Shown here one piece after another: positions 10,057 to 61,778 of a DNA stretch of 64,000 nucleotides. A model generated the notes under the pieces. The model did no database searches, had not been told where the DNA came from, and worked only from the letters and a program-made list of their open reading frames with translations. The DNA lies in the sequence record PZ445524.1; one strand, written 5' to 3'. The position numbers and the translations under genes are program-made. Within the stretch, counting starts at the first letter, position 1. Every line of letters starts with the position of its first letter. This DNA is from a phage.

Positions 10057-10086
10057 ATTATACCACATCCTTGTGGTAAAGTAAAC
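10057..10086 (-). promoter_or_regulatory. early promoter (GTTTAC-N18-TATAAT)
   Basis: minus strand GTTTACTTTACCACAAGGATGTGGTATAAT; -35 overlaps gene 60 stop. Confidence 0.55.
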
Positions 10087-11417: not shown

Positions 11418-12948
11418 CTACTGTTATCCATTTACCATTAATCTGTACTTCATCATTTTCATTTACGATAATTGTATCGCCATTTAGTTCGAAAGTAAAC
11501 CACTCGCCATCTTCTTTTTCTTCAAACGCCTTTTCACCAAGAACTAGACCAGTGATTGCGCAAATATCAAATAGTTCTTTGTTTTTAAGCATATCGGCAT
11601 ATGACATACCCCAGCTATTAAGAACTTTACCGCGCAATGGATAACCACCATGAAGTTCTTTATCGCGAACATCAATAAGATATCCGATAGCAGAATCACC
11701 CTCAGTCAAGAAAAGAGTAGTGTCAGCATCTTTACCGCAAAGATTCGCTTTGATATGTTTATGAACCTTAGCTTTAGAAGCCTTTTTAGCTGCTTTAGTT
11801 TCTGCTGCTTTTTCTGCCGCCAATTTACGAGCCAAAGCAGCTTCAATAATCGGCATCAGAATTGCTTCATTATTTAGAATAGCGCGTGAAATCTTTTTAG
11901 CATCAAGCTGAATATGACTACGAATTTCACCAAATGGAGAAGTCAAACGCTCTTTAGTTTGAGAATCAAATCGCATGTTTTTCATATCACGAACAAACAT
12001 AACGATAGTCAAACATTCTTTAACACGTGCTTTAGTTACATCAATTTTGAACTTACGTTTGATTTGTGGAATAAGGTCTTCACAAATATCATCCATAACA
12101 CAGTCAATGTGATGGCCACCATTCTTAGTGTGGATGTTATTCACATAAGTTAATTGACGAAATCCATCCGGTGAACGACCAACCGCAATAGAACAATTTT
12201 CTTGTTCTTGAACAATAGCATGTTCATCATACTGCCGTGCATATTTCTTAAAATTGCCCTGAACCTTTTTACCATTAAAGGTAAATTGGATATCAGGATA
12301 AACAACAGCAAGTGTCTGGAGACGATCTAGTGTAATGTCAAGATAAACTTGGGACAGCTCATTAGTTTCAAATGACATAAAATCAGGAATGAAAGTAACA
12401 CGAGTTCCTTTCCATTTTCCAGGAATATCTTCCCATGATTTATTTTCCATGCCATTTGAACAACGAACTACAATATTATTTTGACCATCGCCAGTTTCAC
12501 CAACAAACATCACAGAAAAAATGTTTGTCAAACTAGAACCAACACCATTCATACCGCCAGTGACGCGTTCTTTATCATCACCAAAGTTACCACCTGCTTT
12601 TGGAATAGTCCATGCAGCAACAGGACCAGGAATTTCTTCACCGGTAGGTGTTTTAACCATCGCTTGTGGAATACCACGACCGTTATCTTCAACTGTTACT
12701 TGATTGTTTTTAATAGTAACATTAATTTTATTTGCGAATTTAAACTTAGTACGAATACCTTCATCTACTGAGTTATCGATAATTTCATCAATAAGCTTAA
12801 CAAGACCAGGTACATACTGAACACTTTCCCATTTACCAAACAGAAAGCGCTCATGCATTTCATTAGCAGAAGAGCCAATATACATGCCGCTACGCTTTTT
12901 GATATGTTCAATATCGCTCAGAATTTTAATTTCATTCTTAATCATCAC
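11395..12948 (-). CDS. 39: DNA topoisomerase II large subunit (GyrB-like ATPase)
   Basis: 517 aa; MIKNEIKILSDIEHIKKRSGMYIGS and GHKL ATPase motifs. Confidence 0.95.
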   Translation of the reverse strand: MMIKNEIKILSDIEHIKKRSGMYIGSSANEMHERFLFGKWESVQYVPGLVKLIDEIIDNSVDEGIRTKFKFANKINVTIKNNQVTVEDNGRGIPQAMVKTPTGEEIPGPVAAWTIPKAGGNFGDDKERVTGGMNGVGSSLTNIFSVMFVGETGDGQNNIVVRCSNGMENKSWEDIPGKWKGTRVTFIPDFMSFETNELSQVYLDITLDRLQTLAVVYPDIQFTFNGKKVQGNFKKYARQYDEHAIVQEQENCSIAVGRSPDGFRQLTYVNNIHTKNGGHHIDCVMDDICEDLIPQIKRKFKIDVTKARVKECLTIVMFVRDMKNMRFDSQTKERLTSPFGEIRSHIQLDAKKISRAILNNEAILMPIIEAALARKLAAEKAAETKAAKKASKAKVHKHIKANLCGKDADTTLFLTEGDSAIGYLIDVRDKELHGGYPLRGKVLNSWGMSYADMLKNKELFDICAITGLVLGEKAFEEKEDGEWFTFELNGDTIIVNENDEVQINGKWITVGELRKNL

Positions 12949-13014
12949 TTATCCTCGTTTGGTTTCGGGAATATTATACTCCAATAATCATAAAGCTAAA
13001 GGCCCGAAGGCCTT

Positions 13015-13284
13015 TTATTTAAAACGAATAGTCGAATCCTTGAAGAATAGTCCAGAACATACTGTTCCTTCTACTTTCTGCCCAGTAGGTCCAATAGCAC
13101 GAAATCCAGTATGCTGGAAATCATTTTCAGAGCAACCGAACCAATTATATCCAGTGATTTCAATATTAGTAAAACCACTTGAAGACAAAACTTTGGTTGC
13201 ATTATCAGCATCAGTACATCCTATTAAAGACACTGCTAATACTAATGCTGCAATAGAACGATTAATATATTTCATAATTTTCAC
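13015..13284 (-). CDS. putative lipoprotein (89 aa)
   Basis: N-terminal signal peptide with lipobox LIGC. Confidence 0.6.
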   Translation of the reverse strand: MKIMKYINRSIAALVLAVSLIGCTDADNATKVLSSSGFTNIEITGYNWFGCSENDFQHTGFRAIGPTGQKVEGTVCSGLFFKDSTIRFK

Positions 13285-14481: not shown

Positions 14482-14751
14482 TTAATTGAACATTGGAGCG
14501 ATACGTTTCAGAAGAGTAGCAGCACCTTTGGCGAATTTTACATCATGAAAAACAGTTTCTTCTTCCGTTACAACACGAACTTTAATGTTTTCACAATCCC
14601 AATTTTTACGAACAATCTTCAAAAGCTGCAGTAAATCTTTACATTCAGCAATATCGATAACACATCCACGAGAATCTTCCATTATCGCACGATAACCGTA
14701 AGCCATACCATAATCGTTGAAAGATTGCTCGATGATAATTAAGTTTTCCAT
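14482..14751 (-). CDS. hypothetical protein (89 aa)
   Basis: track ORF starts at TTG in leader; trimmed to ATG (MENLIIIEQ) after GGAG. Confidence 0.55.
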   Translation of the reverse strand: MENLIIIEQSFNDYGMAYGYRAIMEDSRGCVIDIAECKDLLQLLKIVRKNWDCENIKVRVVTEEETVFHDVKFAKGAATLLKRIAPMFN

Positions 14752-14775
14752 TTTATTCTCCAAGTTGTTTTCTGT

Positions 14776-14818
14776 ATCAGTAGTTGATATTGATATAGTA
14801 CCATAATCAACTACTGAT
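14776..14818. repeat. 13-bp perfect inverted repeat flanking a promoter -10 element
   Basis: atcagtagttgat (14776-14788) and atcaactactgat (14806-14818) are exact reverse complements, 17 bp apart. Confidence 0.8.
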
Positions 14819-14848
14819 GTATATAGTTTTATGAAAAAATTTTAAACT

Positions 14849-16532: not shown

Positions 16533-17216
16533 TTATCGTTTTGTTGGAAGAGATAGAGGATCGCATTCTTCCTCTGATGGAGCGTCTTCAAGACCCATAG
16601 CATACCGCAAAGCATACTTCATCATCAGGATGTCTTTCGCACAGTCATGAATAGAATCATGTGCAACAAATCCATCTAAAGTTCCCTTTGGAAGGGGGCA
16701 TGTGGTCATATCACGAACAAGGAGAAGTGCTTCAATTCTGGTACGAATATCACGCTGATTCCAGAATTTACATGGTTCTAACTTAAATGTGTCAAGTTCA
16801 TTCTCAGAAACACCATTAAGACGTTGAATATCACGAATGAGATCGACTAAAATTGGAAAATCAAACGACATTCCACGGCACCAGCCTTGAGATTTCCAAG
16901 GATCGATATTATGCGCATTGATGTAATCATTAAATTTTGCAATACCATCGATGGTGCTTACATCTTCATCTGATGGTGCAATATTTTTTCGAGCTTCAGG
17001 AGACTGATTTTTCCACCATTCGATAGTGCTTTTAGTAAAAAGACGATGTCCTTTTTGGCTTTTTAAATCAAATTTGATTTTAATGCCGCGTGAAACTAAT
17101 TCATCAAATGTTTCAACTACTTCTGGGTTAGGGTCAAAAGCAATTACAGCTAAATCAATAACAGCTGCTTTTTCACCACTTCCCATTGTTTCAAAATCTA
17201 TAATAAAATCAAACAT
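16533..17216 (-). CDS. dexA: exonuclease A (DEDD-family 3'-5' exonuclease)
   Basis: 227 aa, T4 DexA length; N-terminal DFET motif; position upstream of dda region. Confidence 0.85.
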   Translation of the reverse strand: MFDFIIDFETMGSGEKAAVIDLAVIAFDPNPEVVETFDELVSRGIKIKFDLKSQKGHRLFTKSTIEWWKNQSPEARKNIAPSDEDVSTIDGIAKFNDYINAHNIDPWKSQGWCRGMSFDFPILVDLIRDIQRLNGVSENELDTFKLEPCKFWNQRDIRTRIEALLLVRDMTTCPLPKGTLDGFVAHDSIHDCAKDILMMKYALRYAMGLEDAPSEEECDPLSLPTKR

Positions 17217-17491
17217 TAAATTTTCCTTGCTAAATCGCGAATTTGACCTACAGTATAGTCTTGAATATAAACTTTATTAATAGGTTCATCAATAAATTTT
17301 GCCATAGATTCAATATCTTTTTGCATCTCTTCAAGACTGTATATTATCTTTAAAGCTTTTTCGCGAATAGTAATATTTTCAGGACCAGAATTTTTCTCAA
17401 TGACAGCTTTAACATTTGTCATAAGAGATTTAAACTGACACCAACTTAATTCAATCATTAATAACCGCCTTATAAAGATGGCTAATTTCAC
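17216..17491 (-). CDS. hypothetical protein (91 aa)
   Basis: ORF track. Confidence 0.55.
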   Translation of the reverse strand: MKLAIFIRRLLMIELSWCQFKSLMTNVKAVIEKNSGPENITIREKALKIIYSLEEMQKDIESMAKFIDEPINKVYIQDYTVGQIRDLARKI

Positions 17492-17711
17492 CTAAAATGT
17501 AATCACTGATTGTAACAGTTTTTACTTCACCACAAAAGAATTCTAACGCAATCAAATCTCGTTCAATTTCTTCCAATTGAAGCATTAACTTGCCTGATTC
17601 AGTTTTCACATTTTTGCGATTTTTGCTATAAGCTATTTCATAAATTTCGCTTACTTTATCTTGAAGAAGATAAAACTGATCTTTAGTTATTTCCACGAAT
17701 AGCTTCCTCAA
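17451..17711 (-). CDS. hypothetical protein (86 aa)
   Basis: ORF track. Confidence 0.55.
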   Translation of the reverse strand: MRKLFVEITKDQFYLLQDKVSEIYEIAYSKNRKNVKTESGKLMLQLEEIERDLIALEFFCGEVKTVTISDYILGEISHLYKAVIND

Positions 17712-17717
17712 ATTTAA

Positions 17718-19037
17718 TCATACATAAAATACATCATAACGACCACGGGTAACACCAACATAAAGAAGTTGTTGGGCCAATTCAGCATCTGCATAATGAA
17801 TACAAGGCGTATAAATGAAAGCACGGTCTACAGACATACCCTGAGCTTTATGGAATGTTGATGCAGGAAGTGCTTTCACTTTACTGAACTGTGATTTAGC
17901 ATCCCAAAAATCACTCCACGGAGCTTTTCCGCCTTTGTTCCAATTTTTATAAGTTTCTGCCGTTTTACCTAAAAATAAATTAAACTTATATAGCTCTTCA
18001 TCAGATGAAATTATTTTAATCTTTTCACGATAATATTCATCATCGCCGTAAGTTTCTACTGTTAAATCCCAATGACGAATTAAGTATTCTCCAGAAACAC
18101 CACGAGCTTTAACAAAGGTTGATGTATACTCTGCTTCTATAATACGAACTAATTGTCCGTTATTAAAAATAATTTCTGACACAGGCTTTCCATCAATTTT
18201 ATATGTTTTAATTAATGGTTCCTGCATTACAATAATTTCACCGACAATAAAATCTTTATCAGTTTCAAAAATCTTTTTACGAATAATGCTATTTAACTTG
18301 TCAACAGATTTATTCGTAAATGCCATTACACGATTTTCAAACAAATCATCTAGTGATTTGACGATTGAAAAATAATTTACCATAAAATCGCGTAAAGCGG
18401 TATCACCAGTAAATCCACGTACTCCATGCCCGTCAACAACTTTATCATAAATCCACTTACCGTTACGAACGTCAGTAGCTACATCAATAATAGGAGCATT
18501 ACTGCGTTTAACTTCAGTGAGTTCACACTGATAAAAATCTTTATGTGTAAAGAATGGACTGATATAAGCAGTATTTTCTCCTGGGTCAACAGGTCTAATT
18601 TGCTTATTATCACCTATTCCAATTATGGTACACCAAGGTGGAATAGTTGAAAGCAGAATTTTAAATAGCTTTCTATCATACATTGACACTTCGTCGCAGA
18701 TTAATACCCTGCATTTAGCTAAATCTGGTACTTCCTTCTGCTCGAAGAGGACATTTTCTTCATATGTTACCGGGTTAATTTTAAGAATGCTATGAATAGT
18801 ACTTGCTTCTTTCCCTGATAGTTTTGAAAGAATCTTTTTAGCTGCATGAGTAGGAGCTGCTAAAATAATACCAGTTTCACCCGTAGATATTAAAGCTTCA
18901 ATGATGAACTTAGTAAGAGTAGTCTTACCAGTACCAGCAGGTCCATTAATAGTTACATGATGTTTCTTTTCTTTAATAGCCTTCATAACAATGTTAAAGG
19001 CATTTTTTTGACCTTCGGTCAAATCATCAAATGTCAT
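17718..19037 (-). CDS. dda: Dda DNA helicase (SF1B)
   Basis: 439 aa; Walker A GPAGTGKTT; T4 Dda length. Confidence 0.95.
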   Translation of the reverse strand: MTFDDLTEGQKNAFNIVMKAIKEKKHHVTINGPAGTGKTTLTKFIIEALISTGETGIILAAPTHAAKKILSKLSGKEASTIHSILKINPVTYEENVLFEQKEVPDLAKCRVLICDEVSMYDRKLFKILLSTIPPWCTIIGIGDNKQIRPVDPGENTAYISPFFTHKDFYQCELTEVKRSNAPIIDVATDVRNGKWIYDKVVDGHGVRGFTGDTALRDFMVNYFSIVKSLDDLFENRVMAFTNKSVDKLNSIIRKKIFETDKDFIVGEIIVMQEPLIKTYKIDGKPVSEIIFNNGQLVRIIEAEYTSTFVKARGVSGEYLIRHWDLTVETYGDDEYYREKIKIISSDEELYKFNLFLGKTAETYKNWNKGGKAPWSDFWDAKSQFSKVKALPASTFHKAQGMSVDRAFIYTPCIHYADAELAQQLLYVGVTRGRYDVFYV

Positions 19038-23898: not shown

Positions 23899-23906
23899 TA
23901 TTTATA
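23899..23906 (-). promoter_or_regulatory. late promoter TATAAATA (gp55-dependent) for soc
   Basis: exact TATAAATA on minus strand about 30 nt upstream of soc ATG; overlaps stop codon of the HNH gene. Confidence 0.7.
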
Positions 23907-24753
23907 AACCATTTTCAAATCTCTTTATCATGTTTATATAATTTTCGTCAGGATAACCTAGGCTAACTGCTAGCTTTCTAAAATTGACATATTTAGGTTT
24001 GTTGTTATTAATCCATAATTCTCTAAGCTCTTTTTCATAATTCCATTTAAGTTGATTTCTGCGTGCAATTTTGCTTAAAGTTTTTCCTTTAGCTTTTAAA
24101 GCTTTTTCAGATGACTGTTTTAATTTTTGAATATTTAAAACTTCTTCTATAGATAAATTATTTTCCTTTGAATATCTTATGCAAAAATCTTTTACTATGG
24201 CTATTAGGCAATTTTTGTGAGTACCTAAAATTTCTGGATTATTTTCTTCAACTAAAATTCCCCAATACCTTCGATAGCGAGGCATATCCCTTGAAATCCA
24301 GTCATTATACCAAAAATCAAAGTTGGAATACATGAAAGATTTTCTTTTACGAAGAGTATCTTGGTTTATCCATTGCTCACGTTTATCAGCCCATAACTTA
24401 ATAGTAAAGTCTTTCTCTAAGTCAGAAAGCTTCTTAAATTGTGAGCTATTTACTGAGGTCATTCTCTGGAATGCATTCAGCAATCCAAATCTTCCAGTTG
24501 AACATAAGAGATAGTGAACATATATGTGTTGATATATTGGGAGATATACTCTATTCCAAGGATATATTTTAAAATCACTATACTCAGGAAATGCACATTT
24601 AGGAAGTATATGATGGGCTTCTGTTTTAGATTTAATGTGAGTGTTTAACTTATACTTATCTATAATTTTTAAATACTCATCTAAAAGTTCCCATTGCGGG
24701 AACTTTTCTTTAAGAGCAGATTTGAAATTAATATCCATTATCTTGACGTTCAA
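23902..24753 (-). CDS. free-standing HNH homing endonuclease (283 aa)
   Basis: HNH-like motif EAHHILPKCAFPEY similar to MobA/MobD-type motifs; basic C-terminal region; between soc and 56. Confidence 0.7.
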   Translation of the reverse strand: MNVKIMDINFKSALKEKFPQWELLDEYLKIIDKYKLNTHIKSKTEAHHILPKCAFPEYSDFKIYPWNRVYLPIYQHIYVHYLLCSTGRFGLLNAFQRMTSVNSSQFKKLSDLEKDFTIKLWADKREQWINQDTLRKRKSFMYSNFDFWYNDWISRDMPRYRRYWGILVEENNPEILGTHKNCLIAIVKDFCIRYSKENNLSIEEVLNIQKLKQSSEKALKAKGKTLSKIARRNQLKWNYEKELRELWINNNKPKYVNFRKLAVSLGYPDENYINMIKRFENGL

Positions 24754-25246: not shown

Positions 25247-25317
25247 TATTTTTCCTTTCAATTCATGGGTTAGTAGATTAATTATACAATAAATATATAA
25301 AGCAATAAGGAGGACAT

Positions 25318-33686: not shown

Positions 33687-34067
33687 TCACTTAGTCAAAT
33701 TTTTTACACATGAATTATAAGAATTCACTACATACTCCATCGGAGCATTTTTACCGGTACGCCACTGGTAATTATTAGCCCAATTTGCCCAAAGCACAGC
33801 ACAGTAGTTTTCAATTTTTTCTTCGCGTGTAATTACATCCGAATTACGATATGCTTGAGCAGATTCATCTGGACGAATAGCTTCGTCAAAATTCGCCTGC
33901 ATTTGTTCTACTGTCTGTTTTGGAGCTTCTTTATAACACTTGACATTAGGATTATAAAATTTGCTTGAACAGTTTACAATTTTTCCTACATCAGACTGAT
34001 TTACTACCGGTCCTTGAGCTACACAACCAGCAAGACCTAATGCAATAACCAAAATAGCGATTTTCAT
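33687..34067 (-). CDS. putative lipoprotein (126 aa), imm.1-like
   Basis: trimmed from TTG to ATG (MKIAILVIALGLAGC lipobox); conserved leader GGAG upstream. Confidence 0.6.
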   Translation of the reverse strand: MKIAILVIALGLAGCVAQGPVVNQSDVGKIVNCSSKFYNPNVKCYKEAPKQTVEQMQANFDEAIRPDESAQAYRNSDVITREEKIENYCAVLWANWANNYQWRTGKNAPMEYVVNSYNSCVKNLTK

Positions 34068-34104
34068 TTCATTCTCCAAATCCGTATCAGTAGTTGATAG
34101 TTGT

Positions 34105-34134
34105 ATAGTACCATAGAAGAACAGGGATGTAAAC
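34105..34134 (-). promoter_or_regulatory. early promoter with conserved leader
   Basis: GTTTAC-N18-TACTATACAACTATCAACTACTGATACGGATTTGGAG. Confidence 0.55.
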
Positions 34135-34219
34135 AGTTTTATGAAAAAAAATTTTTAGGGAATCCAAAGGGTCCAGAATCATCTCTTTTTCATAAGTATA
34201 GATTTATATTACTTGTATG

Positions 34220-42489: not shown

Positions 42490-43505
42490 TGTGTTGCCTC
42501 TACATATAGCTGATTTGCATATTGAATAAGTGCTTCACGGTCAGAATCAGTGATGTCTGGAATTGCATTAATATACTCTTCCATTAATGTCTGAAGCGAT
42601 TGAACTTCAACTTCTTCACTGTCATCTGACTCGACAGAGTTATCAATCTTTGACACAACTCGTAACGAATGCACAACTTTTTCTAGTTCAGATTCGAACT
42701 TCGTCAGATTTTTGTCTACTTCAGTTACTATAACACGTACTGATAGATTTGTAAAATCTTTATAGTCAATTTTTCCTTTAAATGGATAATGAATTCTACG
42801 ATGCCAGGTAGTATTGTTTGGAATAAATTCCATTCGTTCTGTTTCTGTATCAAACATCCAGAACCCACGAGGGTCATTCTCGTCACCTGCAGTTAGTGTC
42901 CATGGTGTCCCAATATATCTGACGTTTGCAGCCTCAGAAATAGTATGGAAGTGACCAGACCACACTTCTTTATAAGTCTTAAGGAAATCAGGTTCAAGAC
43001 CGTGAGATTTCATTCCTTTATAAAAATAAAATCCATTCAGTTCCCAGTGACCAACACAAAAAGAAGCAGATGAAGTTTTGATGTGCTCAAGAATTTCACC
43101 AGTATTTTCTTCGCACATCCAAGGAATCAAATCAATCAAACATCCGTCAAAATCTACTGTAGTAGGCTTATCATATACTTTAACATTAGGATATTTAGCC
43201 AAAAGCTCAGTAGAAGCATTTGGAGTTAAAGTATTTTTAAAGTGCATATCATGGTTTCCTACAACAGTATGCAGGGTAATACCAGCATCATCAAGCATTT
43301 GAACTATTTCACGAGCAAACTCCATAGTTTTATGCGTGATTGCTTTTCGCACATCAAAAATATCGCCGTATTGAATCCAGGTAGTAATTCCATTTTTCTT
43401 AGAATATTCTATCGCTTGCTTAATTCCATCCAACTGAATGGATTGAACCCACTCATCATCGGCTTTAACGCCTAAATGCCAATCACCTAAATTTAAAATT
43501 TTCAT
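42486..43505 (-). CDS. 47: recombination nuclease subunit (Mre11/SbcD-like)
   Basis: 339 aa; phosphoesterase motifs DWHLG, GNHD. Confidence 0.95.
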   Translation of the reverse strand: MKILNLGDWHLGVKADDEWVQSIQLDGIKQAIEYSKKNGITTWIQYGDIFDVRKAITHKTMEFAREIVQMLDDAGITLHTVVGNHDMHFKNTLTPNASTELLAKYPNVKVYDKPTTVDFDGCLIDLIPWMCEENTGEILEHIKTSSASFCVGHWELNGFYFYKGMKSHGLEPDFLKTYKEVWSGHFHTISEAANVRYIGTPWTLTAGDENDPRGFWMFDTETERMEFIPNNTTWHRRIHYPFKGKIDYKDFTNLSVRVIVTEVDKNLTKFESELEKVVHSLRVVSKIDNSVESDDSEEVEVQSLQTLMEEYINAIPDITDSDREALIQYANQLYVEATQ

Positions 43506-43642
43506 ATATCAAGAACCGTCATTGAAATGCAAAATAAAATTATTGAAATAAATCCATCTGGAGTGCTAAAGAACCCAATCCAACATGCTCTAGTGAATAG
43601 ATAAAATGCAAGAAAAAGTATCACATATCCAAGAAATATCAT
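43502..43642 (-). CDS. small membrane protein (46 aa)
   Basis: hand-translated MIFLGYVILFLAFYLFTRACWIGFF...; GGAG SD; ATGA overlap with gene 47 start. Confidence 0.45.
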   Translation of the reverse strand: MIFLGYVILFLAFYLFTRACWIGFFSTPDGFISIILFCISMTVLDI

Positions 43643-43667
43643 TATATCAAACTCCGTATAAAGCTAA

Positions 43668-43681
43668 AGGGCCGAAGCCCT
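43668..43681 (-). promoter_or_regulatory. AGGGC-UUCG-GCCCU hairpin at 3' end of alpha-gt
   Basis: seen in sequence. Confidence 0.55.
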
Positions 43682-44884
43682 TTATTTTGTAATAATGTCA
43701 AACTGTTCTTTAAAGCAGAAGCTTGAATCTTGATGCTGATACAAAAATTCATATGCTTTTTCTCGCTCACGGTCATAAAGAGCTCGGTCAGATGACAGTT
43801 CTTTAATACGTTCAAATGTTGATTCCATGTCATTTTCATCAAACCAAATGATACCGCTATCATGCGAGGTCAAAGGAGTATTATCAACACGGAATTTTAA
43901 ATTTTCGCCAGTAGATTTCCAGAAAACAGGAATTGTACCGCAAGCACCTAATTCAAGATGAGTATATTCGAGTGAGCGTTGTAAGTATTTCTGGTTAAGT
44001 TTACTCAACTGATATCCAAAGCCAGATTTACTCATTCGTTCAAGCATTTCACTATTAATATAACAATCTAGGATTTGTGCCGGTTGATTCGGCGCGAGAT
44101 TCATTTTATCAATCTCACGATTACCGTAATATTCATACGGAATACCTTTTTCCTTAATTGCAATAAAAGCAGGGGAACGTTCAAGACCTTCCATTACAGT
44201 GGATTTACCAGAAGGTTTTAAGAATTTTTCGTGAAAATCAAACATCTGATAAAAACCTTTCCATGTAGTCGTACGACCAATCCAACGGTTGATGTTCATG
44301 TTAATTTCAGAAACATCTTTCCAATAAGTTGACCGAACCTTCGCAATATCCATAGGAGGCTGAAAGTTATATACTGTCGGTGCTTCTTCAATATCATCAA
44401 ACAGAGAAACAGTTTCTGGATACCATTCTTTCATCAGAACTTTATTAAAATCACCATTATCAGAATGGCTAAAAATAACATCAGCTCGACGAACAGTTTC
44501 TTCTAATCCCAAATTTCGACGCAAAGAAAGAACAGAATGATCATGCTGATAAACTACAACACGAATAGAAGGTTTAATATTATCTAAAAGTTTTTTATAG
44601 TTATTAATCGTGGCTTCTTGAACGGAAGTAGCAGGAACAGAATTAATAATTAGAATATCACAATCATTAATCAGTTTAAGTGCTTTATCGTATTCTTTAG
44701 CTAAAATAACTGGAATTGAAAATGATTTGTGGTCATGAGAACTTGTACGAGTAAATGATTTATCTTTAGCATAAACCAAAGTTACTTCATGACCATTTTT
44801 AATAAACCAATCACGTTGCTCGAGTGAGAATTTTGTTACACCACAACCTTCAAGACCCCGAGCCAGAAAAATGCATACTTTCAT
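43682..44884 (-). CDS. agt: DNA alpha-glucosyltransferase
   Basis: 400 aa, T4 alpha-gt length; position between 55 and 47. Confidence 0.9.
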   Translation of the reverse strand: MKVCIFLARGLEGCGVTKFSLEQRDWFIKNGHEVTLVYAKDKSFTRTSSHDHKSFSIPVILAKEYDKALKLINDCDILIINSVPATSVQEATINNYKKLLDNIKPSIRVVVYQHDHSVLSLRRNLGLEETVRRADVIFSHSDNGDFNKVLMKEWYPETVSLFDDIEEAPTVYNFQPPMDIAKVRSTYWKDVSEINMNINRWIGRTTTWKGFYQMFDFHEKFLKPSGKSTVMEGLERSPAFIAIKEKGIPYEYYGNREIDKMNLAPNQPAQILDCYINSEMLERMSKSGFGYQLSKLNQKYLQRSLEYTHLELGACGTIPVFWKSTGENLKFRVDNTPLTSHDSGIIWFDENDMESTFERIKELSSDRALYDREREKAYEFLYQHQDSSFCFKEQFDIITK

Positions 44885-44908
44885 TTAATATCCTCTTTGT
44901 TTTGGTTC

Positions 44909-44932
44909 ATTTTACCAAAAAATTTATAAAGC
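44909..44932 (-). promoter_or_regulatory. MotA-dependent middle promoter for alpha-gt
   Basis: minus strand ATTGCTTTATAA (MotA box) - 11 nt - TAAAAT, about 25 nt upstream of ATG. Confidence 0.55.
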
Positions 44933-45128
44933 AATATAGGAGCCGAAGCTCCTATCCACATAATACGCCATACAGAGGCTCGTTAGAACTTTTAAATTTT
45001 ATGCGCTTATATGTTATAGTTCCTTCTGCTTTAGCTTTATCATGAGACTCTTTAAAGCGTCTCATCATTTCCTCTTTAGAGGAACGAATTTTATTATAAT
45101 CTATTTCAGAAGTCTGGGTGTTCATCTT

Positions 45129-45335
45129 TCACAGTTGCCACCATTTTTTGACTTGATAAGAATCAACCCACACTTTCATATTAGGGTCTGCTCTTACAAT
45201 AGGAGGATTAACTTCTTTAATTGAACTATTACGGTATTCTTTTTCAGAAATTTTCACACAAAGATGACCATTCAAAGATTCAGTAAATCCTGCATTAATT
45301 TTAAGACGCTTGAATTTTACGCGTGTAAGCATCAA
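45129..45335 (-). CDS. hypothetical protein (68 aa)
   Basis: ORF track; start uncertain. Confidence 0.4.
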   Translation of the reverse strand: MMLTRVKFKRLKINAGFTESLNGHLCVKISEKEYRNSSIKEVNPPIVRADPNMKVWVDSYQVKKWWQL

Positions 45336-45618
45336 TCATATCCTCAATCTGCGATCTAGTAGTCTTCCAAAGAATACTAATGAGTTCATCGTTATATGGC
45401 TGTTTTAGAATATCCCGACTTTTCTTGATAGCATATTCGTATTGAGCAAAATTATTATTTTCAGCTGCAATCTGAGCGTGCTTATAAAGACGATTCAGTT
45501 CGCGTTTGTTTTTAGACAATAACTTATTTGCTTTTCTTTCTGCTTCAAGACGGTTCTTTTCTTCAATAGAAGAAATAAGCTTTTCCACTTCATCATTAAT
45601 TTCGGGTTTATCAGTCAT
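45301..45618 (-). CDS. hypothetical protein (105 aa)
   Basis: ORF track. Confidence 0.55.
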   Translation of the reverse strand: MTDKPEINDEVEKLISSIEEKNRLEAERKANKLLSKNKRELNRLYKHAQIAAENNNFAQYEYAIKKSRDILKQPYNDELISILWKTTRSQIEDMIDAYTRKIQAS

Positions 45619-45619
45619 A

Positions 45620-45838
45620 TTATTTCTCTAATATAAAATAAAAATCATCATCTGTTAAATGATACCGATAGTTTAATTCTACACCATTAGATTTAAAAGC
45701 GGTATCATACGGATTTTCTGGATCAATATCAATGTCAAGAGCTAAAACTTCCCTGAGATACATTTTAAGTAAATAGGGAATAGCTTCAACTTCAGGTATT
45801 TCTTCCAAGAATCCGGAGAGGTTAATCGTTAGCCTCAT
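45620..45838 (-). CDS. hypothetical protein (72 aa)
   Basis: ORF track. Confidence 0.5.
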
Positions 45839-46379
45839 ATAAAAAATCCAAACTAGGAGAATCGTCTACAACACTTTTCTTTTCAGCCCCCGGTGTTCTA
45901 TAGGTTGATTCTTCGTAATGCGTCATTTTATCGTAGATGTCTTGAATAAAAGTTTCATCTACTAACGCAACCATATCGTCGTCACGACTGTCATAGACAT
46001 TGTGAACGAAGTAACTATATTTCTTTGCAACTTCCTTACGTTCTTTTTTAATACGTTGGACGAATGCATTAAAACAAGCTTGAGTTATATACGCATGTGG
46101 GTTTTTATATTTCGTTTCATCAAAATTATGAAGCCCCTTAATAGAAGCTTCTATACCATCTGCAATCATTTCTTGTTTCCAAGACTGGGTGTATCCTGAA
46201 AAGTTGAAACGTTTAGATAAGCCTTCTGCAATAAGCATAATGGCTAATCCGATAGTATCATTCTGACGAACTACTTTATTTGGGTCTTTATTATTTGCTA
46301 ATTCTGTTTTCCAATCAATAATAGCTTGTAAAAGCTCTTTATTGTTTACGTAATTATATTTAGGCTTAGTTTCTGACAT
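45822..46379 (-). CDS. 55: late-transcription sigma factor gp55
   Basis: 185 aa from [10 protein letters not shown]; region-2-like sigma motif; T4 gp55 length. Confidence 0.9.
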
Positions 46380-46457
46380 TTTCACCTCTTAGCTCAATTC
46401 ATAGATCTATTATATCATAATATTTGAAGATCTATCTTAAAGCATAGAGGATATCAG

Positions 46458-46727
46458 TTATCTAAGTAAGCAGTATGCTTGGAACACTTTCTCCATCATC
46501 TTTTTAAATTCATGAATATCTATATAATGACTAGTTAAATCAGCATGATATAAAAAGTCTAAAAACTTTTCATGTGTGCTAACATATTCACTTTCATTTA
46601 ATTCAGAAACATGACTTTCCCAATATCCAACACCAGTCTTATTTGGGAAAAATGAAATTTTCATGTATTGGTCAACATAGAAAATGCCATAATTTTCAAT
46701 AGTAATAGAAATATTAATAAATTTCAT
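46458..46727 (-). CDS. hypothetical protein (89 aa)
   Basis: ORF track. Confidence 0.55.
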   Translation of the reverse strand: MKFINISITIENYGIFYVDQYMKISFFPNKTGVGYWESHVSELNESEYVSTHEKFLDFLYHADLTSHYIDIHEFKKMMEKVFQAYCLLR

Positions 46728-46945
46728 ACATTCATCAACTTAGCCGCTTCAAGAGCTGCATCTAGTGAATCAAATTGATCGACATATTCAATCAGTTCGC
46801 CGTAATTAGCATATAACCACCATTGGCTAAATTCATACTCAAGGATGAATCCGTTTCCTTCAATTTGAGTTAAACCAATGCCATTTGTATTTACTTCATA
46901 TCCAGCAAGACGCAAATCGTTAATAAGAGCTTCGTTCATATTCAT
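46724..46945 (-). CDS. hypothetical protein (73 aa)
   Basis: ORF track. Confidence 0.55.
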   Translation of the reverse strand: MNMNEALINDLRLAGYEVNTNGIGLTQIEGNGFILEYEFSQWWLYANYGELIEYVDQFDSLDAALEAAKLMNV

Positions 46946-47268
46946 ACCTTAGTAATTTTCAGGTCTGCAAATTTTTTCTTGCGTTGATTTTTCATGCGAC
47001 GAATAGTTTTATCGGAAATTTCATGCTTTTGATAAGCTTTAGATTCTACACCAAAAGCTTTAACATCAAATTCTGACAAGATATATTGAACCAACAATTC
47101 ACGGACAGTATTGCGTCCAATCTTCTGATCATTCTGTTTCATCGTCTGATGAAGCTCTTTTTCCCATTTATCCAAAATTTGAGGAGTTACAATATCGCCT
47201 TTTTCTAGCAAAGAAACTACTTTATCATATGCGTAAGAATTAATGACGTTTTTAATTTGAATAGTCAT
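46942..47268 (-). CDS. hypothetical protein (108 aa)
   Basis: ORF track. Confidence 0.55.
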   Translation of the reverse strand: MTIQIKNVINSYAYDKVVSLLEKGDIVTPQILDKWEKELHQTMKQNDQKIGRNTVRELLVQYILSEFDVKAFGVESKAYQKHEISDKTIRRMKNQRKKKFADLKITKV

Positions 47269-47303
47269 ACATTATCCTCAATTACGTTAAAATTTTATCA
47301 TCC

Positions 47304-47320
47304 AAAAAGGGCCGAAGCCC
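47304..47320 (-). terminator. GGGC-UUCG-GCCC hairpin + U5 terminator
   Basis: directly after stop of 47321..47521. Confidence 0.6.
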
Positions 47321-47521
47321 TTAGCTAAACTTTTTGGCACCCTTCCAGCCTTCGTACATCATTGCGGCTGATATTAATATTGCTCCTGAGCAACTTGAAT
47401 ATTTGTGGTTCCAAAACCAATTCAGAAAAACTTCGTCATCAATACCTTGGGCTATCATATTTTCAAAGAACTGACGACGAGCTTCGGCAATTCGCTGCGA
47501 TAATTTAGATTCAGGATTCAT
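47321..47521 (-). CDS. hypothetical protein (66 aa)
   Basis: ORF track. Confidence 0.55.
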   Translation of the reverse strand: MNPESKLSQRIAEARRQFFENMIAQGIDDEVFLNWFWNHKYSSCSGAILISAAMMYEGWKGAKKFS

Positions 47522-48923: not shown

Positions 48924-49394
48924 TTAATCATGTTTCCACACCCCATCGGTATTTGACCAAAGCCGCTGATTATCTGATCCTCGCCACAGCTTTTTAGTCG
49001 GAAGATTTTTCTCATACTTCCCATCAATAATAACATCAACATATTTAAGCATTTCTAGTTGTTTAATATCTTCAAACTTATATCCAGTCCACAACCAAAT
49101 GCTTTTATTGGGATAAAGATTTTTTACTGTTTGAACAATGCAATGAATAACATCTCGGTTATCAGGATAGAGAGGGTCACCTCCGGTTATAGTCAATCCT
49201 TCTATATAATCATTATTCAAACATTCAATTAATTGTTCTAGTGTTTCACCAGTGAATGGAACGCCATTTCTAGCATTCCATGTTGATTTATTATAACACC
49301 CTTCACATTTATGCAAACAGCCTGTAACGAAAAGAACGGTCCTGCAGCCAGGACCATTAATAAAATCGCAAGGATAAAATCTATCATAATTCAT
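48924..49394 (-). CDS. nrdG: anaerobic ribonucleotide reductase activating protein (radical SAM)
   Basis: 156 aa; CxxxCxxC-type cluster motif GCLHKCEGC. Confidence 0.9.
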   Translation of the reverse strand: MNYDRFYPCDFINGPGCRTVLFVTGCLHKCEGCYNKSTWNARNGVPFTGETLEQLIECLNNDYIEGLTITGGDPLYPDNRDVIHCIVQTVKNLYPNKSIWLWTGYKFEDIKQLEMLKYVDVIIDGKYEKNLPTKKLWRGSDNQRLWSNTDGVWKHD

Positions 49395-51208
49395 TGGTGT
49401 TTAACCCTATGCATGATTTCTTTATTTTTGCCGAGATTAAATCCGCGTTCGTTCGGATTTCCCAAATAACCACACGTTCTTCTTATTGTGTTCATCTTTT
49501 TAGGATCAGTTTCTCCACAAATAGAACAAACAAATCCGTTTTCAGTAGGAGTCATTTCATGGGTACTTCCACATGTAAAACATTTATCTACTGGCATATT
49601 AACACCAAAATAATCTAAATGTTGTGCAGCATAATCCCACACGGCCTCAAGACCTTTCAAGTTATTTTTCATATCAGGAAGTTCAACATAAGAAATGTGA
49701 CCACCTGTCGCAATGAAATGATATGGCGCTTCACGAGAAATCTTTTCAAACGGAGTAATATTTTCTTCTACTGAAACATGGAAACTGTTAGTGTACCAAC
49801 CTTTATCGGTAACATCTTTTACGCTTCCATATTTTTCTGTATCGAGTTTACAGAAGCGATAACAAAGGTTTTCAGCAGGAGTCGAATATAAACTAAAAGC
49901 AAATCCAGTTCTTTCAGTCCACTGTTTAAGACGAGCATTCATTTTAGTTAAAATTTCTCGTCCAATATCACGACCGGCAAGAATATTCAATTCGTGAATA
50001 CCAATGTATCCTAAAGACACTGAACTTCTACCGTTTTTAAATAACTCAATTATGTCGTCATCAGGTTTAAGACGAACCCCGAATGCACCTTCTTGGTAAA
50101 GAATAGGAGCAACAGTAGCTTTAACTCCTTTTAAGGAACTAATTCTACACATCAAAGCTTCAAAACATAAATCCATTCGTTCATTAAATAGCTCAACAAA
50201 TTTCTGTTCATTGAACTGTGTTCCAATATAAGAATCTAACGCGATGCGAGGAAGATTCAGTGTTACAACACCAAGATTATTACGTCCATCAAGAATTTCA
50301 TTACCAGTCGAATCTTTCCATACGCTCAAGAAACTACGGCATCCCATCGGAGAAACAGGAACAGATGAACCAGTGATAGCTTTATTGTTCTTAGCTGAAA
50401 TAATATCAGGATACATCCTTTTGCTTGCACACTCTAGAGCAAGCTGCTTAATATCATAGTTCGGATCATCTTTATAAAGATTAACACCTTCTTCGACGAA
50501 CATAACAAGCTTAGGGAAAATAGGAGTTATCCCATCACGACCAAGACCTTTAATACGATTTTTCAGAATTGCTTTCTGAATCATTCGTTCAGTCCAGTCA
50601 GTTCCCGTACCAAATGTAATTGTTACAAAAGGTGTTTGCCCGTTTGAACTAAAGAGAGTATTTACTTCATATTCATAAGCTTGGAATGCATCGTATACGT
50701 CTTTTTCTGTTTTAGATTGAGCATAATTCAACGCATCAGCGATTTGCCATTTTTCTGCATCTTCAATATGTTTTGCATAGGTGCGTTTAACATAAGGAGA
50801 AAGTACTTTATCTACATTCGCAAAAGTCGTTCCGCCGTATTGGTGAGAAGCAACCTGTGCAGTAATTTGTGCCATAATTGCAGTAGCAACACCGATTGAT
50901 TTAGGAGTTTCAATCTGCGCATTACCAAGCTTAAATCCGTTCTCAAGCATTCCTTTTAAATCTACTAAACAGCAATTAGTAAATGGAAGAGCAGGGGAAT
51001 AATCAATATCATGGAAATGAATAATTCCGCTTTCATGCGCTTTCATAATAAAAGACGGGACCATATTTTTGGCAATGTGTTTAGACACAATACCAGCCAT
51101 AAGGTCCCGTTGAGTTGGAAAAACACGAGAATCTTTATTAGCATTCTCGTTTAAAAGGTCTTTATTAGTTTTATGAATCAATCCTTCAATTTCTTTTTCA
51201 ATTGTCAT
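49391..51208 (-). CDS. nrdD: anaerobic ribonucleoside-triphosphate reductase, uninterrupted
   Basis: 605 aa continuous ORF; C-terminal glycyl-radical and Cys-rich region; 4-nt overlap with nrdG. Confidence 0.95.
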   Translation of the reverse strand: MTIEKEIEGLIHKTNKDLLNENANKDSRVFPTQRDLMAGIVSKHIAKNMVPSFIMKAHESGIIHFHDIDYSPALPFTNCCLVDLKGMLENGFKLGNAQIETPKSIGVATAIMAQITAQVASHQYGGTTFANVDKVLSPYVKRTYAKHIEDAEKWQIADALNYAQSKTEKDVYDAFQAYEYEVNTLFSSNGQTPFVTITFGTGTDWTERMIQKAILKNRIKGLGRDGITPIFPKLVMFVEEGVNLYKDDPNYDIKQLALECASKRMYPDIISAKNNKAITGSSVPVSPMGCRSFLSVWKDSTGNEILDGRNNLGVVTLNLPRIALDSYIGTQFNEQKFVELFNERMDLCFEALMCRISSLKGVKATVAPILYQEGAFGVRLKPDDDIIELFKNGRSSVSLGYIGIHELNILAGRDIGREILTKMNARLKQWTERTGFAFSLYSTPAENLCYRFCKLDTEKYGSVKDVTDKGWYTNSFHVSVEENITPFEKISREAPYHFIATGGHISYVELPDMKNNLKGLEAVWDYAAQHLDYFGVNMPVDKCFTCGSTHEMTPTENGFVCSICGETDPKKMNTIRRTCGYLGNPNERGFNLGKNKEIMHRVKHQ

Positions 51209-51678
51209 TTTAAACTCTTTCTAAGCTGCTTCTTGAATGAAGCTATTAATTGTGTTTTGGTGTCAGATTCATTATATTCAAATCCTCTTTGAAGCATCTC
51301 GGCCATCATTTCCTCTTTTCCTAAACGAGAAAATTCCTTTGATTTATCTCCAACAAAGTTAGGGTGAATATTATTTTGGGTGTAATCGGATTTTAAATAA
51401 GTAAGTAAATTTTCTAACCATTCAAGATAATCAACACCTTGTCCCTTTAAGCCAGAACGATTAAATTTATGCTTCATTTGACCTTCTGCGGCATTGCATA
51501 GATTACAAAGCAATCCACGTACCTTTCCTGCTTTTGGTCCATTTAATTCATGGTCATGATCGAGGTGATTAGCTTGAACATCAGGATTTAGTTCTCGTTG
51601 GCAAATTAAGCATTTACCGTTTTGTGCATCATAAAATTTCTGTTTTTCTTCTTTATATAATTTGCCAGTCAATAACAT
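51205..51678 (-). CDS. 49: endonuclease VII (Holliday junction resolvase)
   Basis: 157 aa; zinc-binding CxxC...C motifs; T4 gp49 length. Confidence 0.9.
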   Translation of the reverse strand: MLLTGKLYKEEKQKFYDAQNGKCLICQRELNPDVQANHLDHDHELNGPKAGKVRGLLCNLCNAAEGQMKHKFNRSGLKGQGVDYLEWLENLLTYLKSDYTQNNIHPNFVGDKSKEFSRLGKEEMMAEMLQRGFEYNESDTKTQLIASFKKQLRKSLK

Positions 51679-52327: not shown

Positions 52328-52537
52328 TTAACCCCGAAGCTTATTAAGTTCTTCATAATCAATCCAGGATTCTAATCCTGATGGCAAATCAGATTCAATT
52401 TCCCAAAGAAGTTCTTCAATTTTATGAAGACGATCTAATTCTTCAGCTGGAATAGTAACCATTGATGGAGTTCTTGATACACTAATATCGTAAATCATAT
52501 TTACCCCAGTTTGACCATGCAATCGCCGTATTTCCAC
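52328..52537 (-). CDS. hypothetical protein (69 aa)
   Basis: ORF track. Confidence 0.5.
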   Translation of the reverse strand: MEIRRLHGQTGVNMIYDISVSRTPSMVTIPAEELDRLHKIEELLWEIESDLPSGLESWIDYEELNKLRG

Positions 52538-52716
52538 TTAGAAATAGACTTTTCGCCATTAGAATAATAAACTTCGAGTTTAGCACGATTATTTTTAATT
52601 TGAATAACCTTGGCTGTCATCAAAGTTCCATATCCATAGTAAACTGCAACTTCATCACCTACATATACCGCGCTTCCGCGGTAATCATGGATATAATCAG
52701 TTCCTTCGAGCATCAT
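52501..52716 (-). CDS. hypothetical protein (71 aa)
   Basis: ORF track. Confidence 0.5.
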   Translation of the reverse strand: MMLEGTDYIHDYRGSAVYVGDEVAVYYGYGTLMTAKVIQIKNNRAKLEVYYSNGEKSISKWKYGDCMVKLG

Positions 52717-58921: not shown

Positions 58922-59890
58922 TTATTTCAGAAGAGTAACCTCAGCGATTTCTTCCCAACCGTTTTTGTCGGTCATAATAAAGTCAGCAAGATAAAGAGCA
59001 GTACGCAGTGAAACATTGCGTAAACGGTTAACATTGACTTTCATCCATGATAATGCTTTATAAGTTTCTTCATCAGAAAGACCGCGCTTTTGCATCATGT
59101 CAGTTGAAAGAATAACATCTTCAACCCTGACCATAATTTCTTCATTAGTGTGAACACCCAAATCCAAATAAACTGAGCGGGACACTAATGCTTGTAAATG
59201 TGGAGCAAGTTTAGTACCACGGTCTAATTCGCGGTCAATGTCAACGTTTGTGATAAAAACAATCGTTCCTTTAAATTCAAACTCACGCTCAATGCCTTTT
59301 TCTTCTAAATAAGAAGATGCAGTGCTCCAGCAGACTTTACGGGTCTCTCCAGTGTCCAGAGCAGCTTTCAGAAGATTAAGAATGTCCATATCAGAGAAAA
59401 CATCCACATCATCAATCAAAAGGACAGAATTCTCTTCACGATTATTCCAGAGCTGTTCATAAAGACCGATACCAGAGATTTTACCGTTAATGCTTTTATA
59501 TTCAATGTATCCAATATCATTTGCTTTATTTAAAGCTTTATCTAAAGAATACGTTTTACCAATACCTGCTGCTCCCGAGATAATTAATGAACGAATATTT
59601 CCGTTAATAATACCATTCGTCATCATTCCCATAACATTAAATCTTTTATTAATGCGGGTTTTCATATCTTCATATGATTCTTTAACTTCTTCAACTTTTA
59701 CACCATCATATGAAATGTCTGATTTGTAAACCCAAACACCACGACGTTTACCGTCAATTTCAACAAAAACTTTACCATCTCCTTGTGCATCTACTGGTGC
59801 ATTATCTGGGAACCATTCGCCTAAGAGCTCAAAAGTTCCAGAGATTTCTTTACCGAAGTAGATACCCTTATTGATAGTTACAGTTTTCAT
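58922..59890 (-). CDS. AAA+ family ATPase (322 aa)
   Basis: Walker A GAAGIGKT, Walker B VLLIDDVD; trimmed from TTG to ATG after GGAG in conserved leader. Confidence 0.7.
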   Translation of the reverse strand: MKTVTINKGIYFGKEISGTFELLGEWFPDNAPVDAQGDGKVFVEIDGKRRGVWVYKSDISYDGVKVEEVKESYEDMKTRINKRFNVMGMMTNGIINGNIRSLIISGAAGIGKTYSLDKALNKANDIGYIEYKSINGKISGIGLYEQLWNNREENSVLLIDDVDVFSDMDILNLLKAALDTGETRKVCWSTASSYLEEKGIEREFEFKGTIVFITNVDIDRELDRGTKLAPHLQALVSRSVYLDLGVHTNEEIMVRVEDVILSTDMMQKRGLSDEETYKALSWMKVNVNRLRNVSLRTALYLADFIMTDKNGWEEIAEVTLLK

Positions 59891-59924
59891 TTTATTCTCC
59901 AAATCCGTATCAGTTGATAGTTGT

Positions 59925-59954
59925 ATAGTACCATAAAGCTTTATGCTTGTAAAC
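59925..59954 (-). promoter_or_regulatory. early promoter with conserved leader
   Basis: GTTTAC-N18-TACTATACAACTATCAACTGATACGGATTTGGAG. Confidence 0.55.
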
Positions 59955-59978
59955 AGTTTTGTGAAAAATTTTTGAAAT

Positions 59979-60004: not shown

Positions 60005-61051
60005 TCATTTATAATAACTTCGGTGGTTTTCAAGATAGACCTTCTCAAGGAAGTCATCCCAGAAACCCATGTCTACTTTTTGCTGCATACCGTTCTTAGA
60101 AGCTTCAGTAGATGCTGCTTCTACTTGATCGACCACATCTTCCAAAAACTCTTGAACCGTTTTAAATGGATGTTTACCCAACTTCACGTCGAGAATAAAT
60201 GGAGCGTCTTTGAGTGGATAGACTAAGTCGCCAGTTTTGTAAATTTCCAATAGTTGAAGTCCACCACGACAAGCATGGCTCAGAGCTTTCCAGTCAATGC
60301 CTTCGTTGGCTTCGGCCTTACGAGCGCGTTCACCATATTCAGCATCTAATTTGTTCAGTGACTGCTTAAGCTCAATAAGAGAAAGAGTTGTCTGATATTT
60401 ACGACCCAACACAGTGTAGAACGTTTGTGGGCCTGTTTTCTCATGATTATGAAATACCCATTCACAGAACTCGTTCTCTGGAAGACGATGCTTAATATCT
60501 TCAACTTTAGTGCGACGCTGCTTAATAGAACCATCTTCTTGGTAATCAACCCATTGCTCAGGGATTTGATTAACTACTTTCAATACATCGCGTAATGCAG
60601 CCAAACGAGAACCCTTGACACCGTATTTAGAAGCTTGCTTGCGAACATATCCTAAATATGATTTCATGTTAGTCGTATAAAAACGAGAACGGTTGTCTTG
60701 AATAAACTTCCACACATCAGGCAAATCAGATTTAACCACTAGCTCAGGTGGAGTGTGAAGCATATCTAATGCTACAGTTTCACCATCTGCTGCTAATTTA
60801 AAGAAATACTTAAGACTGTATAGTTCATGGTCAATATCATCTTTAGTGTTTTTAGATGATGTGTTGTTAGTGTTTTTACTCATATGCTCTTTGACGTTTC
60901 CGATAAGAATATCGCGAGCAGGAGGAACAAAAATTTCTTTAAAATCTACATCAGATTCTGGGGTAGAAGTTCCATAAAGATGACTACCAAAATAAGACTT
61001 AACTACAGTTTTCATTATTAGACCTTTCATAATCTTCATTAAATTGTACAA
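60005..61051 (-). CDS. putative nucleotidyltransferase-fold protein (about 335-348 aa)
   Basis: N-terminal GS...D.D pattern (GSHLYGTSTPESDVDF) typical of pol-beta-superfamily NTases; true start may be ATG at 61015. Confidence 0.55.
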   Translation of the reverse strand: MYNLMKIMKGLIMKTVVKSYFGSHLYGTSTPESDVDFKEIFVPPARDILIGNVKEHMSKNTNNTSSKNTKDDIDHELYSLKYFFKLAADGETVALDMLHTPPELVVKSDLPDVWKFIQDNRSRFYTTNMKSYLGYVRKQASKYGVKGSRLAALRDVLKVVNQIPEQWVDYQEDGSIKQRRTKVEDIKHRLPENEFCEWVFHNHEKTGPQTFYTVLGRKYQTTLSLIELKQSLNKLDAEYGERARKAEANEGIDWKALSHACRGGLQLLEIYKTGDLVYPLKDAPFILDVKLGKHPFKTVQEFLEDVVDQVEAASTEASKNGMQQKVDMGFWDDFLEKVYLENHRSYYK

Positions 61052-61778
61052 TCAATCGATGATAATTAGATTTTGGATATCCTAATTTACTTATATAAGT
61101 TCCGAATGACCCACGTTTAGGTCTATTTAATTTAATCCATAACTTATAAAGTAAGTCATAGTCTTGCCAATGTTTACCAGTTCTTTGTCTAATTTTAGAT
61201 GAATTTGATTGTTTCTTTTTAGTTTCAAAATTATTCAAAGATTTTTTGACTGCAGCAGAGTGTTTTTCTTTAACTCCCGGTCGTTTAAAAGCAGCTTTCA
61301 CCCCTTTAGATATTTTTTCTTTAACTTCCGGTTTGTTTTGTGCTTCTAACTGGGATTCTGAAATTTTAGCCCTTATTTCAGGAAGACTTAATGTTATCGA
61401 ACGTTTTTCTCTGTATTCATTAGACTTCCACATTTCTTTCATTGTATTAGAATGTATTTTTGAAAATTTTTCTCTAACTAACTGATATCCTCTTGAAGTT
61501 AATTTGAGATTTCTTCCTAAAGAATCTTCTCCAAAATTATAAAATGACCACCATGCATAAATTAATCCAGGCGAATTATAATGAATTTTAGCTAAAAGCC
61601 AATGGGCTATAAAATGCTCTCTAGCTGTTAATAAAACTAGATTATCAGAATCATCATTACCACCAATACAAGATGGAATAATATGATGCTTTTCCGTATA
61701 AAAATTTAATTTAGATTTATCTAATTTTCTGAGTTTTCCTTTCTTAATTAAATTATTATATACTTTAGTATAATTCAT
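60999..61778 (-). CDS. HNH homing endonuclease, MobD-like
   Basis: 259 aa; HNH motif KHHIIPSCIGGNDDSDNLVLLTAREHFIAH; N-terminus similar to MobA. Confidence 0.8.
   Translation of the reverse strand: MNYTKVYNNLIKKGKLRKLDKSKLNFYTEKHHIIPSCIGGNDDSDNLVLLTAREHFIAHWLLAKIHYNSPGLIYAWWSFYNFGEDSLGRNLKLTSRGYQLVREKFSKIHSNTMKEMWKSNEYREKRSITLSLPEIRAKISESQLEAQNKPEVKEKISKGVKAAFKRPGVKEKHSAAVKKSLNNFETKKKQSNSSKIRQRTGKHWQDYDLLYKLWIKLNRPKRGSFGTYISKLGYPKSNYHRLIVQFNEDYERSNNENCS

Follow-up and report, generated by a model that had tools for sequence, protein, structure and literature searches.

The 64,000-nucleotide stretch of phage DNA analysed here (the window) carries genes 49, nrdD and nrdG as an unbroken block, which we read, with a probability of about 0.9, as the common uninvaded state of this block in a Tequatrovirus (T4-like coliphage); the additional elements found at the same place in T4 would be optional selfish insertions of whose arrival this phage shows no sign. 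T4 introns and free-standing endonuclease genes have been known since the late 1980s to be optional and patchily distributed, with T4 unusually rich in them, and an uninterrupted nrdD adjoining nrdG is a majority state already anticipated by the literature. The features of the block are as follows.

51205–51678, minus strand: gene 49, endonuclease VII, upstream neighbour of nrdD (157 aa; Pfam Endonuclease_7 and Endonuc-dimeris).
49391–51208, minus strand: nrdD, large subunit of the anaerobic (class III) ribonucleoside-triphosphate reductase (605 aa, uninterrupted; Pfam, PHROG 487 and PDB alignment).
Between 50672 and 50671, minus strand: unoccupied intron insertion site (alignment to T4 exon ends).
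49391–49394, minus strand: overlap ATGA of the nrdD stop and nrdG start (the nrdG ATG overlaps the nrdD TGA).
49374–49394, minus strand: unoccupied mobC insertion site, 21 nt that are the first nrdG codons (alignment to T4).
48924–49394, minus strand: nrdG, radical-SAM activating enzyme of NrdD (156 aa; Pfam, PHROG 626).

The six-frame list of open reading frames (ORFs) gives nrdD as a single ATG-initiated frame of 605 aa, and its coordinates, together with the shared ATGA, bear out a preliminary description of this DNA that had reported one undivided 605-aa frame overlapping nrdG by 4 nt. The translated protein covers the whole NRDD profile (PF13597; E = 1.5e-171, profile positions 1–562 of 562) and matches Gly_radical (PF01228; 1.2e-25, residues 481–586) in Pfam. 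Alignment to T4 nrdD had been set beforehand as the check on this frame; it showed that the ORF is not a fused artefact and that T4 nrdD is indeed interrupted (NC_000866). An artefactual fusion is ruled out because residues 1–605 align to residues 1–605 of crystallised T4 NrdD (PDB 1H78_A) with no gap, as they do in four other PDB entries. The radical glycine G580 (T4 numbering; motif RRTCGYLG) is kept in the window protein—1H78_A is the crystallised G580A mutant—and the C-terminal Cys4 metal site (CFTCGS...CSICGE) is likewise conserved in the alignment to 1H78_A. Compared with spliced T4 nrdD, the window gene differs at 38 of 1,818 nt and three residues (97.9% nucleotide and 99.5% amino acid identity). 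From this amino acid identity to a characterized enzyme, we infer that NrdD of the window reduces NTPs under anaerobiosis, acting as a glycyl-radical class III reductase that would supply dNTPs from NTPs without oxygen.

NrdG matches Fer4_12 (4.1e-48) and Radical_SAM (1.7e-7) in Pfam, has a CxxxCxxC motif that reads CLHKCEGC in the translation and, by homology to the characterized T4 protein, would be the radical-SAM activase that introduces the glycyl radical into NrdD. The gene 49 product shares 100% amino acid identity with T4 gp49, and gene 49 and the start of nrdD share 4 nt, just as nrdD and nrdG do. Because ATGA stop/start overlaps chain the three genes, they are presumably co-transcribed and translationally coupled.

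The T4 annotation (NC_000866) gives nrdD as a two-piece join (43535–46385) with I-TevII at 44836–45612 inside the intervening sequence, and mobC at 42906–43538 between nrdD and nrdG, in agreement with the preliminary description, which placed a group I intron with I-TevII in T4 nrdD (sunY) and mobC nearby. The window aligns to T4 43518–44814 and 45850–47506 with nothing between, so that the 1033 nt of the intron have no counterpart in the window. The sequence across the T4 junction reads ...GCTTATGAGT–intron–ATGAAGTGAAC..., the intron following codon 179 plus 1 nt; we set the splice point by the group I rule (the 5′ exon ends in U and the intron in G) and the U5 sequence, so that exon 1 ends ...GAGT and exon 2 starts ATGAAG. 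Through the corresponding point, the nrdD coding sequence of the window is continuous. An Rfam scan at the gathering threshold found no group I intron (RF00028) anywhere in the window (the T4 control locus scored 105.3 bits), and tblastn with T4 I-TevII (E ≤ 1e-3) found no homologue of the endonuclease in the whole window.

At the nrdD/nrdG junction, window positions 49374–49394 align twice to T4 (43518–43538 and 42896–42916), on either side of a 601-nt insert. The N terminus of MobC, MNYDRIY, is the same as that of NrdG, and its C terminus, ...KDEL and stop (AAA GAT GAA TTA TGA), recreates the nrdG ATG; mobC is therefore a cassette that lies 21 nt into nrdG and carries an nrdG start of its own. 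Searched against the whole window with tblastn, MobC matched only its paralogues MobA and MobD, at 30–40% identity. The gaps relative to T4 are clean at both places (1033 nt and 601 nt) and the Rfam and tblastn searches agree with them, so that the reported lack of the intron with I-TevII and of mobC holds for the window. The nrdG sequence itself is of T2 type—96.6–98.3% identical at the nucleotide level to T2 and slur03 and only 77.3% to T4 (79.6% for the protein)—and the 5′ half of T4 nrdG departs from it by 24–30 nt per 60 nt. This divergence in T4 suggests that the MobC target may be located within the first 300 nt of nrdG (window positions 49100–49394).

We propose that the T4 intron with its GIY-YIG endonuclease I-TevII and the free-standing HNH gene mobC are optional selfish insertions, of which the window shows no sign, and that both would spread when their endonucleases trigger gene conversion during mixed infection. 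Since selfish elements spread in this way, the absence of both needs no special mechanism. In the window, the exon sequence at the intron site and the 5′ half of nrdG are both of T2 type and lack the divergent tracts found beside the intron and mobC in T4. No observation speaks against this reading. The block may instead have been invaded once and then replaced through recombination with an uninvaded allele, as T-even genomes are mosaics.

Surveys of sequence records place the window with the majority. Uninterrupted nrdD occurs in about 97% of sequenced relatives; the intron site is uninterrupted in 828 of the 831 records that matched a 60-nt probe across the site of the window (at least 80% covered), and, of 749 records, 605 have an uninterrupted nrdD/nrdG junction, as counted with a 120-nt probe across the junction, which an insert of any kind would break. 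The full-length T4 intron was found in 25 phage records, roughly half of which are T4 or strains derived from it in the laboratory (the query was offset by 1 nt from the splice point, which leaves the counts unaffected), and mobC in 32 records. That an intron-free nrdD abutting nrdG is the rule in the group and laboratory T4 the exception is already known: a 2010 review describes T4, of all the T-even phages, as the outlier in endonuclease content, with introns that occur variably (PMC2988022). T2, slur03, SG1 and ESCO47 (Mosigvirus) have an identical layout (474, 1,818 and 471 nt with 4-nt overlaps), and PG7 (Karamvirus) has the same gene order, with abutting genes that differ slightly in length and an nrdD/nrdG overlap of 11 nt. 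In U5 the intron is present, yet nrdD and nrdG overlap by 4 nt. A collapsed assembly or mis-joined contig that only mimics an uninterrupted nrdD is vanishingly improbable, given the absence of any gap or frame change relative to the 605-aa crystallized protein, the exact codon-level continuation at the junction within the invariant motif AFQAYEYEVNTLFSSNGQTP and the same structure in hundreds of independent genomes.

T2 (MH751506 and other T2 records) shares the order, lengths and overlaps of 49–nrdD–nrdG and has neither intron nor mobC; its nrdD and nrdG are 98.1% and 96.6% identical to those of the window at the nucleotide level, with no more than scattered point changes between the two blocks. 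T4 resembles the window in its orthologous NrdD, identical gp49 and same flanking genes, and differs in the 1033-nt intron with I-TevII, the 601-nt mobC insert and the diverged exon-2 flank and nrdG 5′ half. The best overall match to the 3-kb block, BF15 (MW822007; 98% identity), has an intron-free nrdD with an identical intron-site sequence, but its junction, unlike the empty one of the window, holds another homing endonuclease gene, of HNH/NUMOD type (228 aa). This gene is built like mobC: the nrdG 5′ end is duplicated, and the C terminus (...INEL and stop) rebuilds the nrdG start. The position of the gene agrees with the description of the nrdD/nrdG gap as a recurrent endonuclease insertion spot that holds mobC or segH (bioRxiv 10.1101/2022.08.31.505936). 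Secondary loss, in which an ancestor had the nrdD intron and/or mobC and precise deletion followed, appears very unlikely. Loss and decay of endonuclease genes are documented in the group, and the intron-free ESCO47 and SG1, with their T4-type exon-2 flank, show a possible footprint of such an event; the window, however, has no such footprint, as its exon-2 flank (six differences from T4 in +1 to +22, all synonymous) and nrdG 5′ half are both of T2 type. The near relatives slur03 and BF15 are also intron-empty with the same T2-type site, and the uninvaded layout, found in other genera too, is the simpler ancestral state.

The intron insertion site lies within the following feature.

50652–50681, minus strand: 30 bp corresponding to the I-TevII homing site (−10 to +20), GCTTATGAAT before and ATGAAGTAAATACTCTCTTT after the insertion point (alignment to T4 exon ends).

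We take the I-TevII recognition sequence to be the 30-bp stretch GCTTATGAGTATGAAGTGAACACGTTATTC, cleaved slightly more than 12 nucleotides 3′ of the insertion site. The corresponding window sequence is identical to the T4 spliced junction at 23 of 30 positions and differs at −2, +8, +11, +14, +15, +17 and +20, in each case synonymously; on this site map, six of these seven differences sit around the cleavage region. They belong to a wider cluster: 10 of the 38 nrdD differences between the window and T4 fall within 40 nt of the insertion site, where 0.84 would be expected (Bonferroni-corrected P of about 1e-6), and all ten are synonymous. T2 is identical to the window from −30 to +31, and slur03 and BF15 are identical across all 80 nt compared. 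Among intron-free phages, the best full-length match to the T4 junction 60-mer reached 94.9%, and about 778 records lay at 80–90%; only four intron-free records, with at least 89.8% identity to this 60-mer, carry a T4-type flank, which we confirmed at base level for ESCO47 and SG1. The encoded motif is invariant over six genera bar one residue in S16, and almost all of the variation is at third codon positions. The simplest reading, which these data suggest, is that the T4 flank is a rare haplotype that hitchhikes on the intron, because homing necessarily co-converts the interval between insertion and cleavage sites.

The same cluster could also mark an escape allele, in which the synonymous variants of the window and T2 type at +8 to +20 protect the site from I-TevII and bar intron homing. 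The 7 of 30 differing positions, clustered far above background, and the rarity of intron-free alleles with a T4-type flank (4 records compared with about 778) would fit this proposal. We nonetheless consider it unlikely, as the obligatory co-conversion accounts for the cluster without selection and the window type is not obviously derived: four of five outgroup genera are nearer to it (three differences in +1 to +22) than to the T4 type (four or five), EcS1 being the exception (four differences to the window type and three to the T4 type). A derived origin of the window-type site thus receives no support from the outgroup comparison. I-TevII tolerates sequence changes in its target, and T2 has served as a recipient of the intron. 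Within the intron, the bases immediately before the I-TevII ORF look like the homing site (TATGAATA.GA.GTGAA) and include an A at −2, like the window. According to a review, I-TevII cuts a fusion of the intron sequences that flank its ORF (PMC3984707), and the likeness of this internal pseudo-site to the window gives a weak hint that the enzyme may tolerate window-type bases—weak because the fusion point of the published experiment is uncertain. In a broader form, the common haplotype at +8 to +20 would lower or abolish I-TevII cleavage across the population, producing a stand-off between a homing endonuclease and refractory target alleles, with the window phage a typical refractory member; this is similarly doubtful, although, if true, it would cover both the scarcity of T4-type intron-free flanks (about 4 of roughly 800 records) and the rarity of the intron. 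As a further weak point against an escape allele, the best-fitting reconstruction of the ORF-deleted fusion, for which we guessed the fusion point, matches the window at +14 and +15.

A query with the 3-kb locus matched about 1000 phage records, of which the closest were nearly all Tequatrovirus at 97–98% identity (among them T2, RB18, RB27, ECML-134 and slur03). In an alignment to T4 nt 1–75000, T4 position 1 falls at window position 7629, and the rest is colinear bar a handful of indels. The record search found no near-identical genome over 25 kb, the best matches reaching about 95–96% in several pieces; the sequence thus comes from a T4-like mosaic phage, and the collection searched holds no twin of it. 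The homing endonuclease genes and the gene 39/60 region of the window are listed below.

60999–61778, minus strand: mobD, retained (99.6% amino acid identity to T4 MobD; PHROG 655).
23902–24753, minus strand: HNH homing endonuclease gene of the mob type, lying between soc and gene 56 in the place of T4 segF (283 aa; PHROG 655, 1.8e-33).
11395–12948: gene 39 (ORF list).
10599–11417, minus strand: mobA, an intact 272-aa HNH homing endonuclease gene between genes 39 and 60 (PHROG 655, 2.5e-57).
10478–10669 and 10086–10409: gene 60 in two pieces (ORF list).
10431–10480, minus strand: 50-nt translational bypass element of gene 60, identical to T4 2803–2852.

The Mob proteins were named by PHROGs, as Pfam HNH matches fell below the gathering score. 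Alignment to T4 and tblastn across the whole window found no segA, mobB or segF; mobD is kept and another mob-type gene occupies the place of segF, so that the characterization of this phage as a T4 relative with a different load of selfish elements proved apt. The phage has a homing endonuclease set of its own, comprising intact mobA with the gene 60 bypass, the mob-like gene at soc/56 and mobD, and this inventory of the 64-kb stretch (with no I-TevII, mobC, mobB, segA or segF) is of value for annotation, as is the intact anaerobic ribonucleotide reductase operon in a mosaic Tequatrovirus. As a natural recipient that is free of both the intron and mobC, the phage would suit homing experiments.

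The preliminary description had also placed a mobile element at the 39/60 locus, and the 272-aa MobA ORF and the bypass element identical to that of T4 substantiate this. Window positions 10028–13017 are colinear with T4 2400–5400 at 97.5% identity, and the region combines a split topoisomerase gene, an HNH MobA of ~270 aa, a 50-nt bypass and GGA take-off and landing codons. The split 39/60 arrangement, 272-aa MobA and 50-nt bypass fit the description of clade 1 (T4 relatives) of the MobA/bypass cassette, in which intact MobA proteins of T4 relatives have 269–279 aa (bioRxiv 10.1101/2022.08.31.505936). T2, by contrast, is described there as having a fused gene 39 topoisomerase subunit and no mobA/bypass cassette, a difference from the window outside the otherwise closely similar nrdD block. 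In laboratory T4, mobA is a pseudogene (60.1 and a 37-aa fragment), whereas that of the window is intact, with the T4 60.1 fragment mapping inside it at 98% identity.

Comparison of the nrdG genes of T4 and the window (T4 nrdD/nrdG locus L001, 4447-4917; window 48924-49394) revealed 24-30 nucleotide differences per 60 nt across nt ~110-290 of nrdG, and the two NrdG proteins share 79.6% amino acid identity. The same tract differs from that of the window by 0-11 nucleotides per 60 nt in T2, slur03, SG1, ESCO47 and BF15. In the survey made with a 120-nt probe spanning the nrdD/nrdG junction of the window, identity in the 5' part of nrdG was also reduced (80-91%) in the other phages that carry an endonuclease gene at this junction. 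Given that the diverged tract adjoins mobC, the pattern suggests that the putative MobC target lies within the 5' half of nrdG. Three Klebsiella phages (Wolf_ER13, Boboto and Shark_ER15; H68, H81 and H96 in the search with T4 mobC) have mobC sequences 99.3-100% identical to that of T4, which implies very recent passage of the cassette between phages of different hosts.

Within nrdD, nt 539-560 of the intron-free genes of the Mosigvirus ESCO47 (L007) and of SG1 (L008) match the T4-type exon-2 flank exactly (ATGAAGTGAACACGTTATTCAG). This flank was otherwise found only in intron-containing phages, and the two genes represent either intron-loss alleles or the source lineage of the intron and its flank.

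Endonuclease genes also distinguish the window from T4 at two other loci. The T4 reference retains mobA only as fragments (60.1 and a 37-aa mobA), whereas the window encodes an intact protein; in the interval between soc and gene 56, T4 holds the GIY-YIG gene segF and the window a mob-type HNH gene.

10599-11417, minus strand: mobA, intact MobA homing endonuclease ORF (272 aa, GTG start)
10431-10480: 50-nt bypass, identical to that of T4
23902-24753, minus strand: mob-type HNH homing endonuclease gene between soc and gene 56 (283 aa; PHROG 655)

Taken together, the intact MobA ORF and the identical bypass make the cassette look potentially active. The genes flanking the 283-aa endonuclease are unusually diverged from T4 (amino acid identity of 47% for Soc and 78% for gp56), as would be expected around an endonuclease target.

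The window also lacks dam (DNA adenine methyltransferase), which is present in T4: ~20 nt (25286-25307) stand in place of ~900 nt (T4 16825-17725), and tblastn detected no Dam homologue across the whole 64-kb window. T4 genes 49.2 and 49.3 (620 nt), of which no homologues were found in the 64-kb window, are replaced by 382 nt (52330-52711) with two small, unrelated ORFs.

52328..52537: first small ORF
52501..52716: second small ORF

Four short stretches of ~90-100 nt (5736-5826, 14744-14846, 34065-34157 and 59884-59973; 85-87% identity) align to T4 at non-syntenic positions (near 55.3 kb, 70.6 kb and 27.0 kb) and resemble copies of a short intergenic repeat that is dispersed in the genome.
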